Shown here in pieces: positions 8,870 to 37,792 of a stretch of 37,792 nucleotides of DNA. Each line of letters opens with the position of its first letter. Position 1 is the first letter of the stretch. The stretch is from a virus (taxonomy: Duplodnaviria > Heunggongvirae > Uroviricota > Caudoviricetes). The DNA lies in the IMG/VR virus record IMGVR_UViG_2690316153_000015. One strand, written 5' to 3'. Under the pieces are notes generated by a model, which worked only from the letters and a program-made list of their open reading frames with translations, searched no databases and was not told the DNA's origin. The position numbers and the translations under genes are program-made.

Positions 8870-9185
8870 AATGACGACACCAACCAGACGGATAAGTTTC
8901 TATCTGAAGCCCGCCGCCGTCAAGAGTGAACAGGAGGCGTGCAATTACCTCGATAGCCTGCCAGCCTCCGAACGCAGCCGCGCGCAACGCGCGGCCTTTC
9001 TGGCTGGGCTAGCGCTCATAAAGCGCAACCCAGCATTTGCCTACTGGATGGCCGAATGGCCAGAGGACAACCTCCCCTTCAATACCGTTAGCATCAAGGA
9101 AACATACCAGGATAATCAGCCTAGCGGAGTTGAATGCAATTTTTATAAAATAAAAAAGAATATTCAAACCTTATTCCCAGAATAA
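8870..9185 (+). CDS. parR: ParR-like centromere-binding adaptor (ribbon-helix-helix)
   Basis: Start ATG at 8870 with AAGGAG RBS; RRISFYLKP...LDSLPASERSRAQRAAFLAGLAL resembles R1 ParR (…LDSIPQGERSRLNRAALTAGLAL); the longer track ORF from 8736 would overlap parM. Confidence 0.7.
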
Positions 9186-9234
9186 TCTGATAATTGTATG
9201 TGAACTAATAAAATACAGACCAACACATCATTCT

Positions 9235-9257
9235 GGCACCCTTGCTAACAGGGTGCC
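9235..9257. terminator. Hairpin GGCACCC-N9-GGGTGCC between convergent parR and the cassette
   Basis: Perfect 7-bp inverted repeat in the 83-bp convergent intergenic gap. Confidence 0.35.
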
Positions 9258-9268
9258 AATGTTTCAAA

Positions 9269-10111
9269 TCATGATGAAATTGCCGAAGTTTTTTTATCGT
9301 GCTGAAGTACCGCAAATGCCATTAAAACCTCAAGAGAATAGCGGCGATAATACTTAACAAAACCATAATAAAATACTCGGGATGCAGCAATACAAAACAA
9401 GAGAAGAAAACAAAAAGGTAACAGCCTGATATTTATATCTATTAAAAAGGATAGAAGGAACAGGAACATAAGCAACCAGACTGAAGCGAGAAAAACAAAT
9501 GTAATGTTTCTACAAAAACCATACAAAGCAACATAGTTTTGCATTTTCACCTGATGATTTTTAGAATGTTCATACACATAATGATAAGCAAGGCGAAAAA
9601 GATCGCCCCTCAAGCCCTTACGTCGATATAGCGTAGATACAGAAAAAACATTTATATAACCATCTCGTATTTGCGGCCAAAAGACTTTAATAAGTATAGA
9701 ATGCAGTGTGGTTTTATGATGTTCTGCTTTATCAAAAGCTGATACAGGAAATAAAAAAACTCCACGGATAAAATTAACTATACTGAACTTAGTATTATGT
9801 CGTTTTATTTTCAGGGAGCTTCTTTTAGAAAACAGATAAATTGAAGGATACCCAAGTTTACTGTTCATGTATTTTTCAATTAAACAGGATGATAGAATAG
9901 ATATGAAGTGACCTGAAATATATGATAGAACGATTAATACCACATATATAAATACACTTATTATTTCTTTATATTTCAGGATATGGTTAAGAATACCTTC
10001 TATATAAACAGGGTTAATTTCAATAGAAAACAAAAAAAGGATAAACAGGAATAACCCACCTGGAATTAGATAGCCCAAAAAGTCATAAAATGAAAACGGA
10101 TTCTGTGTCAC
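9269..10111 (-). CDS. Multi-pass membrane protein, unknown function (cassette gene 2); GTG start
   Basis: 280-aa ORF; at least four long hydrophobic segments; very AT-rich codon usage unlike flanking phage genes; GGGGGA RBS before GTG. Confidence 0.65.
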   Translation of the reverse strand: MTQNPFSFYDFLGYLIPGGLFLFILFLFSIEINPVYIEGILNHILKYKEIISVFIYVVLIVLSYISGHFISILSSCLIEKYMNSKLGYPSIYLFSKRSSLKIKRHNTKFSIVNFIRGVFLFPVSAFDKAEHHKTTLHSILIKVFWPQIRDGYINVFSVSTLYRRKGLRGDLFRLAYHYVYEHSKNHQVKMQNYVALYGFCRNITFVFLASVWLLMFLFLLSFLIDINIRLLPFCFLLLFCIAASRVFYYGFVKYYRRYSLEVLMAFAVLQHDKKTSAISS

Positions 10112-10150
10112 ACTTCCCCCTGTGTTACTTGTAAATTAAAGGGTAAAACA

Positions 10151-10648
10151 TTATTTGTTTTTCCGTAAAGGATTAGCTTTCCATCTTCTTACTAACCATT
10201 CGAATTCTTGATATGTAGTATCCGAATTAATGCTTTCTCTGATTGCTTTAATTAATGGCTCGGCAATATCATATGTCTCTACAACTGTTGTGTAAGATGT
10301 TCTTTTTATCATTTTTTCATCATAAATACCTTCACGAATACTTACAGCAACTCGCTCGTAAAAATTTAAAATATATTGAAATTTTCGACGCTCGGCCATT
10401 TCTTCATCTGTTATTATGCAACCATCACAAGGAAAAACATAAGAACGAAATGATTTGCCTGAACGATGCACTTGTTTCAGGGTATGCAATGACTCTATAT
10501 ATTGCATATCTTGCCGACTCTCAAAAAGAAAGTTGGCCGTTTGAGTTTTTTTTGCGGTACGCACATTGTAGATAATGGTTCCAATGGCAACCAAAACGCC
10601 AAGCAGAACAATAGCATTGCTGATGATTTGTAGTGTTATTGGGTTCAT
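10151..10648 (-). CDS. Single-pass membrane-anchored protein, unknown function (cassette gene 1)
   Basis: 165-aa ORF; N-terminal TM segment ITLQIISNAIVLLGVLVAIGTIIY then ~135-aa soluble domain with CDGC motif; AT-rich; 39 bp upstream of gene 2. Confidence 0.65.
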   Translation of the reverse strand: MNPITLQIISNAIVLLGVLVAIGTIIYNVRTAKKTQTANFLFESRQDMQYIESLHTLKQVHRSGKSFRSYVFPCDGCIITDEEMAERRKFQYILNFYERVAVSIREGIYDEKMIKRTSYTTVVETYDIAEPLIKAIRESINSDTTYQEFEWLVRRWKANPLRKNK

Positions 10649-10663
10649 CCTATTTCATCCATA

Positions 10664-10690
10664 AAAAAGGCGGGGAGCAAATCCCCGCCT
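10664..10690 (-). terminator. Intrinsic terminator on minus strand (GGCGGGGA-TTTGC-TCCCCGCC then T6), ending 15 nt upstream of the cassette start codon
   Basis: Perfect 8-bp GC stem followed by a T-run when read on the minus strand. Confidence 0.55.
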
Positions 10691-10845
10691 CATTAGAGGT
10701 CAACGTAGCTTAGAAACCATCAAATTCATCATACATTTTTTTCATATCAACCCCCTCATAGAAATCATAACCACGTTTTGTGGTTTTTGTGACGCATAAA
10801 CTACATCAAAGGCAAGCCACGGTCAAATATATAGGCATGCTTACC

Positions 10846-33231: not shown

Positions 33232-34254
33232 TTAATACGCATTTAATTTAAATTTGTATTTGCCTTCTATGTAATGGATAAATTCAATTATGCTTTTTTC
33301 TATCGCATCTAATATATGAATATATCCATCCCGATTTAAGGTCCTATCCAACTCAAAGTGATGAACTATCCCATGTCTATATTGTATGATTTCAGAAATT
33401 CGATTCTCAAGAAAATCAACTGATTTTCCAATTCTTTTTTTCTTATAAAGAATCGCTCTCACATCTATATCCAGCCACTCTTTATATGCTTTGTTTAGGT
33501 GGGTTAAGTTTTGAAAAGTGTAATTTCTTGCAATAACACTTTCTATTGAAATATTTCCTTTCTCTATCTCAAGCAGAATATCAAAATCAACTTTTTGCTT
33601 ATACGATGTTCTTTTTGCTATTGCGAAAGGATCGTACTTTATAAGTATTTGAAAAGCTCTAGAGAAAAAGTATTCAAACATAGCAACCGCAAAAGGTACT
33701 AATCCATTATATATAACTCTACTGGGATCCATACATTGCATGTAATCAAAGTATTCGGATAAGCCGCCATCTTCCGGTAGGTTTAATTTAATAGAAGGTT
33801 CAGGTAAGGCATGTTTAACAGCGGAAATCTCATGATGGACATGATTAAATATTGAAGAAATGCCACGACTGATCGGACTACTAGAATCCTTCCATAGAGG
33901 AGCGTACCTATTTTTCCCATAATCACCTATAAGTGTTCCACCAAAAAGACTCCTTGCGCCTTTTAGAACATCATTAAGCATTTTTACATCATGCCAACTA
34001 GCGCTATATAAATTACGCACATGCAATGCCCATTTATTACCAGATATGTGTAATTCGTCATTTGAAACAGGATATATATCAGCCGAAACTCCATCTGTAG
34101 ATTTGAAGTCCGTATCATCAAACCAAGAGTAATTCAACGTTCCTTGGGGCCATCCCCACAAATGTTTACACCTTTTAAAACCTAAATTTTCAAGGTAATT
34201 TTTAAGTTCGTTTCTAGTTGCTTTTTTAGGGTACAGCGTTATATCTCTTCCCAT
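33232..34254 (-). CDS. AT-rich hypothetical protein with C-terminal R-x4-H (HEPN-like) motif
   Basis: 340-aa ORF; low GC relative to backbone; motif YRHGIVHH near the C-terminus; inserted between D and ogr. Confidence 0.6.
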   Translation of the reverse strand: MGRDITLYPKKATRNELKNYLENLGFKRCKHLWGWPQGTLNYSWFDDTDFKSTDGVSADIYPVSNDELHISGNKWALHVRNLYSASWHDVKMLNDVLKGARSLFGGTLIGDYGKNRYAPLWKDSSSPISRGISSIFNHVHHEISAVKHALPEPSIKLNLPEDGGLSEYFDYMQCMDPSRVIYNGLVPFAVAMFEYFFSRAFQILIKYDPFAIAKRTSYKQKVDFDILLEIEKGNISIESVIARNYTFQNLTHLNKAYKEWLDIDVRAILYKKKRIGKSVDFLENRISEIIQYRHGIVHHFELDRTLNRDGYIHILDAIEKSIIEFIHYIEGKYKFKLNAY

Positions 34255-34445: not shown

Positions 34446-34706
34446 ATGTTCCGTTGTCCGCTTTGTGGCGCATCTGCCCGTATCCGCACAAGTCGTCCGG
34501 AAAATGATTCAAACACCGTGCGGCAAAAGTATTACCAGTGTAACAATCTGGAATGCGGCGTATGCTTCTCAACACTGGAAGCTTTCCATAAATTCACATC
34601 GAAACACGCCTCCGGCGTTCACTCTTCAGAAGGTATCCCGTGGCATGAGCTACCAGCTTCACACAGGGGAAACAATCAGATGAGTTTGCCTTTACCTCAG
34701 AATTAA
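34446..34706 (+). CDS. ogr: Ogr-type zinc-finger late gene activator
   Basis: MFRCPLCGAS...QCNNLECGV gives the C-x2-C...C-x4-C pattern and N-terminus of P2 Ogr. Confidence 0.85.
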   Translation: MFRCPLCGASARIRTSRPENDSNTVRQKYYQCNNLECGVCFSTLEAFHKFTSKHASGVHSSEGIPWHELPASHRGNNQMSLPLPQN

Positions 34707-34896: not shown

Positions 34897-35037
34897 ATGT
34901 CGCAAAAATCGCTTACAGCCATCACGTTCTGCGTGACGGTAATCCTCATCATCTGGATGTTGCACGGTTCGCTGTGCGAAATACGGATGAGTTTCTGGGG
35001 AGCGGAGTTTGCGGCGTTCTTACAGTGTAAGCAGTAA
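34897..35037 (+). CDS. Hok/Gef-family type I toxin (46 aa: MSQKSLTAITFCVTVILIIWMLHGSLCEIRMSFWGAEFAAFLQCKQ)
   Basis: Single TM helix followed by the conserved SLCEIR...E.AAF signature of Hok/Gef peptides; AAGGAG RBS; GC hairpin GACGGGGGA-GTAAT-CCCCCGTC downstream; absent from the ORF track because under 60 aa. Confidence 0.65.
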   Translation: MSQKSLTAITFCVTVILIIWMLHGSLCEIRMSFWGAEFAAFLQCKQ

Positions 35038-35298
35038 GGAAACCGCGACGGGGGAGTAATCCCCCGTCAATCGGTTGCCAGGGTAAGGTCGATAAGGCAC
35101 CCTATCTCACGGCTCTAAATGCAAAAATTCCATGAAACTGTGGGATTTTTGCATCACTACTGATACAGATCTGCCCTTCTATATGTCTCACTCTATACCA
35201 GCTAATCAATTGACACTTATCAATAAAAAAAAATCTGATAAAATCAAAATGTTTTGTAACAAATATCAACTCGTATTGATCCAAAGGAGGCGGATTAC

Positions 35299-35631
35299 AT
35301 GGCATTAATCAAATGTCCTGAATGCCAGAAAGAGGTGAGCGATTCAGCATTGTATTGCCCTGCTTGCGGTAAACAAATAAAAAAACTTAAGCGTTCATTT
35401 TTTGGAAAGCTCATTAAGTGGATATTTATATTATTTAATATTTTTATGATCTATACGCTTTTAGTTGGACTGGGAGGCACTAGTGAAATAATAAATAATG
35501 CTACATCCGATGCCGAAAAAGCCGGTGCAGTTATTGGTACAGGCTTAGGTTTAATTACCATTGGAAGTTTATGGGTTATTGGCGATATCATTATCGGAAT
35601 TTTAGTATTTCTTACTAAACCAAAAGGATAA
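35299..35631 (+). CDS. Zinc-ribbon membrane protein (hypothetical)
   Basis: 110 aa; N-terminal CPEC-x13-CPAC zinc ribbon then two hydrophobic helices; AT-rich; GGAGG RBS. Confidence 0.6.
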   Translation: MALIKCPECQKEVSDSALYCPACGKQIKKLKRSFFGKLIKWIFILFNIFMIYTLLVGLGGTSEIINNATSDAEKAGAVIGTGLGLITIGSLWVIGDIIIGILVFLTKPKG

Positions 35632-35635
35632 CAAA

Positions 35636-36529
35636 ATGAAAAATATAATTTTTTCTATAGGTGCATCATTTATATCAATTAGTGTACTGCCTGTTCACGC
35701 AGCAACTGAACATAATAACTTCAATGCAGTACTCCAGTGCCGAGCAATAGAAAATAATAAAGACAGACTTTCTTGTTACGATAAGTCAATACAACCGACT
35801 CGAACGAAAGTTGCTGAAAAATTCGAAAGCAGAGATCAATGCCCTGATGAGAAAGATGATGACAGACGTTTATCTTGTTATGATCGTTTTTTTTCTCCAA
35901 CATTTACTCCATCTGTAAACTCAAAATCTAAAACGGAAAAGCCAGTAACAACAGAGGCTCAGCAACCAAATCTTTCTGAGATATCTAAATGCCGAGCAGA
36001 AAATGATAAAGAAGCCAGACTAAACTGCTACGATAAACTATTCCCACAGGATAAAGCTGTTCAAGCTGAATCAAAATTAGAGAAAGCCACAGATGTAGGA
36101 AAATGGCACACATCCATTACTACATCGCCAATTGATGATTCGAAAAATGTAATTTTATCGTTAGAAAGTGATGATTATATCAGAACTCCATTTGGAGAAG
36201 CGGTTACTCCCACTCTGTTTATAGCTTGCCGAGAAAAGAAAACCGAAGTATTTCTTAGTTGGGATGTATATTTAGGCCTTGAACAAACCAGCATGCTTTA
36301 TCGTCTTGATAAACAGAAAGCAGTTGAGCGAAACTGGCTAGTATCTACAGATACAAAGGCTGTTTTTTATAAAGGTAATGACATTGATTTCATCCGAAAA
36401 CTAGCCAACTCAAACAAAATGTATACAAAAATAACTCCTTATAATGAGAGCCCTGTAAGTGCAACTTTCAATTTAAACGGCCTGTCAAACGCGCTAAAAC
36501 CACTTCAAGCTGCTTGTAACTGGAAATAG
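35636..36529 (+). CDS. Secreted protein with three tandem C-x12-C-Y-D repeats (hypothetical)
   Basis: 297 aa; signal peptide ending VHA-AT; repeats CRAIENNKDRLSCYDK, CPDEKDDDRRLSCYDR, CRAENDKEARLNCYDK; 4 bp after the upstream gene. Confidence 0.65.
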   Translation: MKNIIFSIGASFISISVLPVHAATEHNNFNAVLQCRAIENNKDRLSCYDKSIQPTRTKVAEKFESRDQCPDEKDDDRRLSCYDRFFSPTFTPSVNSKSKTEKPVTTEAQQPNLSEISKCRAENDKEARLNCYDKLFPQDKAVQAESKLEKATDVGKWHTSITTSPIDDSKNVILSLESDDYIRTPFGEAVTPTLFIACREKKTEVFLSWDVYLGLEQTSMLYRLDKQKAVERNWLVSTDTKAVFYKGNDIDFIRKLANSNKMYTKITPYNESPVSATFNLNGLSNALKPLQAACNWK

Positions 36530-36555
36530 CATAAATCATGTGGCTTAGCCACAAT

Positions 36556-36600
36556 CACAGATAACACAAAGCCCGTGAAAACGGGCTTTGTGTTATCTGT
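36556..36600 (+). terminator. Strong hairpin (19-bp perfect stem ACAGATAACACAAAGCCCG / CGGGCTTTGTGTTATCTGT, 7-nt loop)
   Basis: Perfect inverted repeat 26 bp after the stop of the secreted-protein gene. Confidence 0.5.
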
Positions 36601-36614
36601 AACTCGAAAATGTG

Positions 36615-36631: not shown

Positions 36632-36796
36632 TGCTGATATAAATCCTTTTATATCAATAAATTAAATCATCATTTTTTTCATCAACAAGGATTTTCACGT
36701 TTGTGTTACCTGTATGAGACGAGAGTTAACCGGACAAGTGTGCCATAATCTCGCGGCCAGGCATACTTGCGAAGATTTCAGGTATAAGGATACGTA

Positions 36797-37792
36797 ATGA
36801 TACAACCTATTTCCGGCCCTCCTCCTGGGCAACCACCAGGTCAGGGAGATAACCTGCCGTCTGGCGCGGGCAATCAGCCTTTATCCAGTCAGCAACGTAC
36901 TTCGCTGGAAAGCTTAATGACGAAAGTGACCTCACTGACGCAACAACAAAGAGCAGAACTGTGGGCGGGTATCAGGCACGATATTGGTCTGTCGGGAGAT
37001 TCACCGCTGCTTTCGCGTCACTTCCCTGCCGCTGAGCATAATCTGGCGCAACGTCTGCTGGCCGCGCAAAAAAGCCATTCTGCCCGCCAGCTTTTAGCGC
37101 AATTAGGGGAGTATTTACGTCTGGGGAATAATCGTCAGGCGGTCACGGATTATATCCGTCATAACTTTGGTCAGACACCGCTGAATCAGCTCTCACCGGA
37201 GCAATTAAAAACCATTCTCACCCTGTTGCAGGAAGGGAAGATGGTTATTCCGCAACCACAGCAGCGCGAGGCGACCGACCGTCCTTTATTACCGGCGGAG
37301 CACAATGCGCTAAAACAGCTGGTGACCAAACTTGCGGCGGCAACGGGGGAACCCAGCAAACAGATCTGGCAATCGATGCTGGAACTTTCCGGGGTGAAAG
37401 ATGGCGAGTTAATTCCAGCGAAACTGTTTAACCATCTGGTGACCTGGTTGCAGGCGCGCCAGACGTTAAGCCAGCAAAATACGCCGACGCTGGAATCACT
37501 ACAGATGGCGCTAAAACAACCTTTAGATGCCAGTGAACTGGCGGCGTTATCGGCATATATCCAGCAAAAATATGGCCTTTCTGCGCAATCATCGCTTTCT
37601 TCTGCCCAGGCCGAGGATATTCTTAATCAGCTTTATCAACGGCGGGTTAAAGGGATTGATCCGCGTGATATGCAACCGCTGCTTAATCCTTTTCCACCGA
37701 TGATGGACACGTTGCAAAATATGGCAACGCGTCCCGCGCTGTGGATACTGTTAGTCGCGATTATCCTGATGCTGGTCTGGCTGGTTCGTTAG
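36797..37792 (+). CDS. flk: Flagellar regulator Flk (host gene, C-terminal membrane anchor)
   Basis: 331-aa ORF with PPGQPPGQ N-terminus, Gln-rich body and C-terminal TM LWILLVAIILMLVWLV, as in enterobacterial Flk; normal GC content. Confidence 0.8.
   Translation: MIQPISGPPPGQPPGQGDNLPSGAGNQPLSSQQRTSLESLMTKVTSLTQQQRAELWAGIRHDIGLSGDSPLLSRHFPAAEHNLAQRLLAAQKSHSARQLLAQLGEYLRLGNNRQAVTDYIRHNFGQTPLNQLSPEQLKTILTLLQEGKMVIPQPQQREATDRPLLPAEHNALKQLVTKLAAATGEPSKQIWQSMLELSGVKDGELIPAKLFNHLVTWLQARQTLSQQNTPTLESLQMALKQPLDASELAALSAYIQQKYGLSAQSSLSSAQAEDILNQLYQRRVKGIDPRDMQPLLNPFPPMMDTLQNMATRPALWILLVAIILMLVWLVR

Follow-up and report, generated by a model that had tools for sequence, protein, structure and literature searches.

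What do two AT-rich genes at the right end of a P2-like prophage, one coding for a zinc-ribbon membrane protein and the other for an exported protein of a family named after a type VI secretion system (T6SS) component, do for the bacterium that carries them? The DNA in which they lie, hereafter the window, is the IMG/VR virus record IMGVR_UViG_2690316153_000015, a stretch of 37,792 nucleotides. Gene 1 is an open reading frame (ORF) of 110 amino acids at positions 35299-35631 of the + strand, its TAA stop ending at 35631, and gene 2 is an ORF of 297 amino acids at 35636-36529 of the same strand, starting with the ATG at 35636.

On balance, we lean towards the view that the pair is a moron operon whose products form an envelope assembly in the lysogen, without a T6SS cluster. 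In the scheme that we propose, this accessory operon of a P2-like temperate phage, lying between ogr/hok and attR, would be transcribed from its own promoter. Gene 1 would give a small inner-membrane protein in which a cytoplasmic C4 zinc ribbon precedes a DrpB-like two-helix hairpin. Gene 2 would give a Sec-exported periplasmic VasI/TagO protein in which flexible linkers connect three helical hairpins, each probably held together by a disulfide, and a fourth disulfide would close the C-terminal IalB-like sandwich. Both proteins would be made in the lysogen, where they may jointly build a periplasmic assembly, anchored in the inner membrane, whose action on the envelope would not depend on a T6SS cluster.

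An optional two-gene cargo of P2-like phages

Between the two genes lie 4 bp, and both have a strong Shine-Dalgarno sequence in front of them (AAGGAGG at 35284-35290 for gene 1, AAGGA immediately 5' of 35636 for gene 2). Their G+C content is 36-38%, compared with about 52-60% for the phage backbone. The whole window is a P2-like prophage; it opens with the integrase gene (1-1005, − strand), and after the tail genes come ogr (34446-34706) and a hok-family gene (34897-35037). A search for att repeats within the window returned no repeat of 12 bp or more; attL lies just to the left of the window, and the att core was therefore solved via strain A8, in which the 18-bp sequence TTCATCAACAAGGATTTT adjoins the integrase at attL. 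The identical 18 bp form the attR core at 36678-36695, in the first codons of the host gene pdxB, and mark the right end of the prophage, to the right of which lies host flk (36797-37792). Since the attR core is at this position, the pair sits about 150 bp inside the prophage. In prophage-free E. coli genomes, K-12 among them, similarity to the window begins only at about 36676, and pdxB and flk are adjacent.

The pair is an optional AT-rich cargo of P2-like phages. It was found in 237 of 5426 complete E. coli genomes (at least 80% coverage), and in other P2-like prophages that do not have it, ogr-hok abuts host DNA directly. Strain PSS-08-2 has the ogr-hok-pair block at the end of a P2-like prophage that is integrated elsewhere, beside tRNA-Leu/Cys/Gly. 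Among deposited phages, gene 2 is present in 500465-2 (100% identity), in Citrobacter Shae_phiSM and PhiR44_2 (99%), in Xuanwuvirus P884B11 (95%) and in many Klebsiella phages (64%), and the pair also occurs in P2-like prophages of Klebsiella, Pectobacterium and Salmonella. Two of the properties by which morons are recognized are found here: the pair varies among related phages within the phage boundaries, and its base composition is deviant. The conserved −35/−10 footprint and the perfect 20-bp hairpin, which lacks a U-tract, may in addition be a promoter and a terminator of its own.

An earlier note on this DNA had described two linked AT-rich genes with a 4-bp gap between a hok-like locus and the right prophage end, and the coordinates, the G+C content and the att core agree with that description. 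It had also proposed a moron operon, carried as cargo at the prophage end, which is borne out by the location inside the att boundaries, the optional occurrence, the mobility with the phage, the base composition, the promoter-like footprint and the hairpin. The comparison across P2-like prophages that it called for gave a variable pair, present at another att site and in sequenced phages. Its counter-case was that of core host genes conserved in prophage-free strains; there, pdxB and flk are adjacent and the pair is absent.

That the two genes belong to the host core at the pdxB-flk locus has nothing in its favour and is refuted by this adjacency; the pair is in 237 of 5426 genomes, lies inside attL/attR and occurs at a second att site as well.

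Upstream of gene 1, a consensus scan picked up a sigma-70-type promoter-like site at 35217-35244 (+ strand; −35 TTATCA, 16-nucleotide spacer, TG-extended −10 TAAAAT), the scan score alone not being significant. This −35/−10 block is kept 5' of the gene 1 orthologue in Klebsiella, Raoultella and Enterobacter prophages and in a Pantoea chromosomal copy, where the flanks cannot be aligned. Just 3' of the −10 sequence is the palindromic block TTTTGTAACAAAT (35252-35264, + strand), near-identical in the window, in loci L007, L023, L024, L042 and L022 and at the Pantoea chromosomal locus L015, with conservation reaching from E. coli, Klebsiella, Raoultella and Enterobacter prophages to this chromosomal copy; it may be an operator. 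On the other side of the pair, 3' of gene 2, lies a perfect 20-bp stem-loop (36557-36600, + strand). The folded stretch 36530-36612, which includes a smaller upstream hairpin, has a minimum free energy of −43.4 kcal/mol (z = −10.9 relative to shuffled sequences). The stem-loop has no U-tract and was therefore missed by the terminator scan; it is probably a transcription stop or an att-arm element.

Integration into the first codons of pdxB (36678-36695 in the window; 941-982 of locus L055 in strain A8) has a consequence for the host gene. The annotated start of pdxB in the lysogen is a phage-supplied TTG that adds eight new N-terminal codons, and the expression signals of pdxB therefore now come from phage DNA.

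One database record places the locus in Firmicutes: a 4.2-kb contig (L021, DEQA01000038.1) of the metagenome-assembled genome (MAG) 'Planococcaceae bacterium UBA3378' contains the gpD-ogr-hok-pair end, with identities to the window of 100% for VasI, 99% for gene 1, 98% for gpD and 74% for ogr. This record is almost certainly a contamination or a mis-binned contig.

The two proteins and their probable partnership

The gene 2 protein begins with what looks, from its residues, like a Sec signal peptide (residues 1-22, nucleotides 35636-35701, + strand), with a hydrophobic segment at residues 4-22 that ends in VHA-AT and no lipobox. The motif C-x8-R-L-x-C-Y-D-[KR] then occurs three times (residues 35-50, 69-84 and 119-134) with a fixed C-x11-C spacing, in predicted helical hairpins at residues 28-52, 62-86 and 112-136 (nucleotides 35717-35791, 35819-35893 and 35969-36043, + strand). 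A second type of cysteine pair, C198/C294, belongs to the IalB-like beta-sandwich (residues 152-297, nucleotides 36089-36526, + strand). Across 58 homologues of 34-70% identity, C119, R128, L129, C131, D133 and C198 are invariant and C294 is nearly so; because the cysteines, R, L and D of the motif and the C198/C294 pair are conserved to this extent, the repeat is not a chance pattern. Against the Pfam family VasI (PF11319, formerly DUF3121) the protein scores 89.6 bits for a cut-off of 26.5, residues 118-296 covering positions 1-184 of 184, with two extra partial matches on repeats 1 and 2. Going by these profile matches, the cysteine repeat is the canonical N-terminal element of the VasI family. 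The NCBIfam equivalog TIGR03360, whose cut-off of 124.2 bits stands for the same function as T6SS VasI, is matched with 75.9 bits and thus below that cut-off, and NCBI annotates the protein as 'type VI secretion system-associated protein TagO'. The sequence agrees with the earlier note on a probable signal peptide and on the three cysteine repeats; the spacing of 9 to 11 residues that the note gave is in fact a fixed x8 (C-x11-C), and the repeat, in which it recognised no named domain, is the N-terminal part of VasI PF11319/TIGR03360.

The number of motif copies varies among 92 homologues, with one copy in proteins of about 205-220 residues, two in those of about 247-250 and three in those of about 294-307. 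Repeat types are found as A+B, A+C, A+B+C or C alone; conservation extends to the cysteines of the motif as well as to the C-terminal pair. In the AlphaFold2 model, built from a 58-sequence alignment, residues 155-297 form a beta-sandwich with two helices at a predicted local distance difference test (pLDDT) score above 90. The repeats, at pLDDT values of about 70-82, are modelled as helix-turn-helix at repeat 1 (helices 29-35 and 41-51) and repeat 3 (helices 113-120 and 125-135) and as a single helix (75-85) at repeat 2, and the linkers between repeats and sandwich are disordered. The eight cysteines of the mature protein pair consecutively (35-47, 69-81, 119-131 and 198-294), which would suit oxidation in the periplasm, and disulfides are predicted.

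In the same model the C-terminal half has the IalB beta-sandwich fold, and the Pfam IalB profile (PF06776) gives 20.6 bits (E=5e-4), under its cut-off of 22.1. The structural neighbours of the gene 2 protein are IalB, a flagellar LPHT-ring component and uncharacterised phage proteins. A search of the viral folds in BFVD returned only uncharacterised phage proteins, and a PDB sequence search with the family profile gave only chance-level matches (ATP synthase subunit d, Tim21).

The gene 1 protein has two parts. Its N-terminal C4 zinc ribbon, predicted to be cytoplasmic (residues 4-26, nucleotides 35308-35376, + strand), has the motifs CPEC (residues 6-9) and CPAC (residues 20-23) and matches Pfam Zn_Ribbon_1 (PF13240; E=1.8e-7, above cut-off). 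The putative DrpB-like two-helix inner-membrane module follows (residues 28-110, nucleotides 35380-35628, + strand). It has hydrophobic segments at about residues 38-60 and 83-106 and AlphaFold2 helices at 34-66 and 71-105, with basic residues on the cytoplasmic side of both helices, and the predicted topology is N-in/C-in. The Pfam match, the hydrophobic segments and the modelled helices all accord with the zinc ribbon of the CPEC...CPAC type and the two transmembrane (TM) helices reported earlier. The protein belongs to phrog_6586 (E=7e-43), and the mean column identity of its family is 73% (36 sequences).

The relationship of this module to the cell-division protein DrpB depends on how the comparison is made. 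Gene 1 scores 22.1 bits against the NCBIfam DrpB profile NF038392, whose cut-off is 50; 33 of the 36 homologues match this profile, all below the cut-off, with a best E-value of 5e-7. When the gene 1 family was aligned by hhalign with a single K-12 DrpB sequence, the probability was only 16%; with an alignment of 30 DrpB sequences it rose to 92.7% (E=4.2e-7), residues 28-110 being aligned with DrpB 10-93. The homology is convincing because of this alignment-to-alignment comparison, which the single-sequence comparison was not, and on such profile evidence the membrane module is homologous to DrpB. The motifs RSxxGKxxxWxF and T-[RK]-P-[KR] are common to both families, and T106 and P108, invariant in the gene 1 family, are aligned with T89 and P91 of DrpB. 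A search with the membrane-module profile gave 7797 matches at E<=1e-3, in which the module stands alone or with other N- or C-terminal additions. For both genes the ratio of nonsynonymous to synonymous substitution rates (dN/dS) is 0.06-0.23, and both are under purifying selection.

The two genes travel together in phages. Among 80 IMG/VR viral loci with a gene 2 relative, ogr lies upstream in 68 and gene 1 directly upstream in at least 59, six further near-identical loci having been mis-scored through frameshifts. The order ogr, gene 1, VasI is also found in Pectobacterium, Klebsiella, Raoultella, Brenneria and Salmonella prophages. In addition, zinc ribbon, TM segment and VasI are fused in a single chain in Spectribacter (L051, 225 amino acids), in a Desulfobulbaceae MAG (L038, 347 amino acids) and in a P2-like prophage (P0052), all three proteins scoring above the Pfam VasI cut-off; to judge by their sequences, the fusions in Spectribacter and in the Desulfobulbaceae MAG are independent. 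Another E. coli P2-like prophage has a 2-repeat VasI whose neighbour is a second kind of zinc-ribbon membrane protein, one containing a TM2 domain.

At the ogr-hok-attR end of these prophages, genes for small zinc-ribbon membrane proteins are a recurrent feature. In 94 complete E. coli genomes the gene at this site codes for a 98-amino-acid protein with a zinc ribbon and a TM2 domain and lacks the 2-repeat VasI neighbour that it has at locus L018 (6830-7126).

VasI, lysogeny and the possible role of the pair

No T6SS gene is present in the window. The 133 genes flanking 25 chromosomal VasI relatives, from Vibrio, Photobacterium, Shewanella, Pseudomonas and others, were also inspected, and no T6SS family was among their 25 most frequent Pfam families; the top rank was shared by phage integrase, methyltransferase and acetyltransferase domains. 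The T6SS-cluster setting expected for the Vibrio, Photobacterium and Pseudomonas relatives was found in none of their flanks. In unrelated temperate phages, VasI-like genes occur close to the repressor. In Brucella phage BiPBO1 the repressor gp68 is followed on the same strand, after an 8-bp gap, by the VasI-like gp67, and in Klebsiella ST11-VIM1phi8.1 a VasI-like gene comes after the repressor on the same strand. In IMG/VR loci, a helix-turn-helix (HTH) repressor, VasI and an integrase lie on one strand, once with an AAA_15/AAA_21 ATPase. The place after the repressor is a classic position of lysogen-expressed genes, from which we infer that such VasI proteins would be made in the lysogen.

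The ATPase-containing string, at about 3844-8560 of L137/L138, reads HTH repressor, a 200-amino-acid protein with no assigned family, VasI, AAA_15/AAA_21 ATPase and integrase, all on the same strand. By its layout it resembles a cargo cassette of a lysogeny operon that includes an ATPase of the defence type.

The family name suggests that the phage may supply a T6SS helper, a periplasmic VasI-like protein that would raise T6SS killing by the host and make the lysogen a better competitor, on the model of V. cholerae VCA0118. Many Enterobacterales carry a T6SS, and gene 2 does fall within Pfam VasI. VCA0118 itself is dispensable for secretion of Hcp and VgrG-1, is needed for the killing of amoebae and contributes in part to that of E. 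coli (PMC3166118), and the authors who described phage ΦSM classed a 99%-identical protein as a T6SS/virulence factor (PMC6456863). However, the score of gene 2 against the TIGR03360 equivalog (75.9 versus 124.2) and the lack of T6SS genes, both in the window and among the 25 top Pfam families around the 25 chromosomal relatives, speak against such a helper. So does the carriage of VasI-like genes by Brucella and Pasteurella phages, since Brucella is not known to have a T6SS. A 2026 review, moreover, still gives the role of TagO/VasI as unknown, and altogether we find a T6SS helper unlikely. We rank somewhat lower still the idea that gene 1 is the active component, a DrpB-like protein that would drive envelope signalling or division through divisome localisation and/or activation of Rcs (and Psp) via RcsC, changing capsule and envelope with VasI as an accessory. 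Septal localisation, ftsEX suppression and Rcs activation are experimental properties of E. coli DrpB, whose overproduction activates Rcs via the periplasmic domain of RcsC in a manner that requires T89 (PMC7648144, PMC11709261). The homology extends over the whole membrane module, both motifs are shared, and the T89 needed for Rcs activation (PMC11709261) aligns with the invariant T106. Yet identity is only about 19% and the score 22 against 50 bits, DrpB has no zinc ribbon, and the periplasmic loop, which DrpB needs for ftsEX suppression, differs (PMC11709261). The Rcs effects of DrpB are multicopy effects with no known physiological role (PMC11709261), and the conserved VasI partner would be left unexplained.

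A neutral origin, in which chromosomal genes were taken up beside the att site by aberrant excision and have no selected function, is very improbable. Gene 1 does exist in the Pantoea chromosome, between cueR and copA and with the same promoter footprint, and at Pantoea locus L017 chromosomal gene 1 has a P2-like integrase immediately next to it, oriented as a capture of this kind would predict. The pattern expected of a neutral passenger is nevertheless contradicted by the dN/dS values of 0.06-0.23, by the retention of all cysteine and motif residues across genera, by the same placement in prophages of at least five genera and by a repeat number that evolved from one to two to three with the reading frame intact.

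The reading that we favour, a moron operon with an envelope role in the lysogen, has several points against it. The only known phenotype of the VasI family, that of VCA0118, is a T6SS one (PMC3166118), and the structural neighbours of gene 2 (IalB, the LPHT-ring component and phage proteins) give no functional information. PADLOC-DB v2 contains no defence family that matches either protein at E<=0.1. Expression of the pair in the lysogen would follow from gene position in other temperate phages. Nor is the partnership obligate, since gene 1 occurs alone as a chromosomal gene in Pantoea (between cueR and copA) and in Haemophilus, and many genomes have VasI relatives without a gene 1-like neighbour; the fusions may reflect mere co-localisation, because zinc-ribbon-TM modules are generic membrane anchors.

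If the envelope assembly exists, it is possible, though we hold this only tentatively, that it shields the lysogen envelope from injection devices (superinfecting phages, tailocins, T6SS), as superinfection exclusion or envelope immunity; the periplasmic binding or immunity-like module suggested in the earlier note is, in general terms, plausible. A bolder version, which we regard as rather doubtful, is a hitherto undescribed, widespread prophage envelope system that is membrane-anchored, spans the periplasm on disulfide-stapled hairpins, and either keeps out contractile injection machines, be they myophage tails, tailocins or T6SS spikes, or senses such damage and triggers Rcs via the DrpB-like partner. 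If true, VasI/TagO would be first of all an envelope-protection family of phages or lysogeny, taken over by some T6SS clusters, and not a T6SS part.

Databases already list both proteins under family names, and neither is a new domain. In the literature, searches for VasI/TagO together with prophage and for DUF3121 returned only the V. cholerae mutant study (PMC3166118) and a listing for ΦSM of Citrobacter rodentium, whose 99%-identical ORF1 was named 'T6SS VasI family protein' and considered putative virulence cargo (Magaziner et al. 2019, PMC6456863). Four findings are not described in the literature searched: that the hairpin has expanded from a single copy to three, that the partner is homologous to DrpB, that fusion proteins exist and that the family is associated with lysogeny operons rather than with T6SS clusters. 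Seen from this locus, VasI/TagO is commonly carried by temperate phages, at positions typical of genes expressed in the lysogen; it usually lies away from T6SS genes, and its recurrent partner is a zinc-ribbon protein with homology to DrpB, which is linked to the divisome and to Rcs. It turns an opaque annotation into testable ideas, namely exclusion or envelope protection, Rcs activation and a boost to T6SS killing; if none of these is true, the pair is ordinary uncharacterised prophage cargo. Tractable material exists in PhiR44_2, for which E. coli C is the recorded host.

Neighbouring features and comparison with known systems

Other parts of the window also carry what may be accessory genes. 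The hok-like gene (34897-35037, 46 amino acids, PF01848 match of 30.1 bits) belongs to the hok/gef toxin family, and a GC-rich hairpin lies behind it at 35046-35069. Of the 43 viral loci with ogr, the zinc-ribbon gene and a three-repeat VasI, about 19 have the hok-like gene and the other 24 lack it, which makes it a separable cargo. Between tail gene D and ogr, a 340-amino-acid ORF at 33232-34254 (− strand, 35-39% G+C) has a weak match to HEPN_RiboL-PSP (PF18735, E=1.2e-4, below cut-off) and none in PADLOC, PHROG or NCBIfam; it is absent from the related PSS-08-2 prophage and may be a candidate defence or toxin cargo gene. A second AT-rich island at about 9000-10700 (31-38% G+C) looks like another variable cargo site of the prophage. 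On its − strand are an ORF of 280 amino acids at 9269-10111 (phrog_12528, with a weak Csx27-like PADLOC match, E=1.9e-5) and one of 165 amino acids at 10151-10648 (phrog_2284).

Set beside known proteins, gene 2 is closest to ΦSM ORF1 and to the same gene in 500465-2, PhiR44_2 and P884B11, which code for essentially the same protein at the same end of a P2/P88-like genome; the ΦSM report lists the protein as cargo and does not go into its repeats, partner gene or function (PMC6456863). With VasI/TagO, whose prototype is VCA0118, gene 2 shares export, the N-terminal C-x8-RLxCYD hairpin and a beta-sandwich closed by a cysteine pair, whereas it has three hairpins and not one, stays below the TIGR03360 cut-off, is phage-borne outside a T6SS cluster and has a zinc-ribbon membrane protein as partner. 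IalB (Bartonella invasion-associated locus B, PF06776, PDB 3DTD), to which the sandwich was compared, lacks the cysteine hairpins and is itself of unknown molecular function. Gene 1 resembles DrpB (YedR, the divisome-associated two-TM protein of E. coli; NF038392/PF28000) in size and in the predicted N-in/C-in two-helix topology; it differs by an identity of about 19%, a score below the curated cut-off, the extra N-terminal zinc ribbon and another periplasmic loop, and belongs to a much larger family.

As a unit, the pair can be compared with old, tin and Z/fun, the lysogenic-conversion cargo of P2, and with membrane/periplasm exclusion pairs such as Imm and Sp of T4. It has no sequence or fold relationship to any of these and no PADLOC match, and its site between ogr and attR is not that of the classical P2 cargo, which lies elsewhere. 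However, like old, tin and Z/fun it is AT-rich, dispensable and variable among P2-type relatives, and its predicted layout, an inner-membrane protein together with a periplasmic one, is by analogy that of Imm and Sp.

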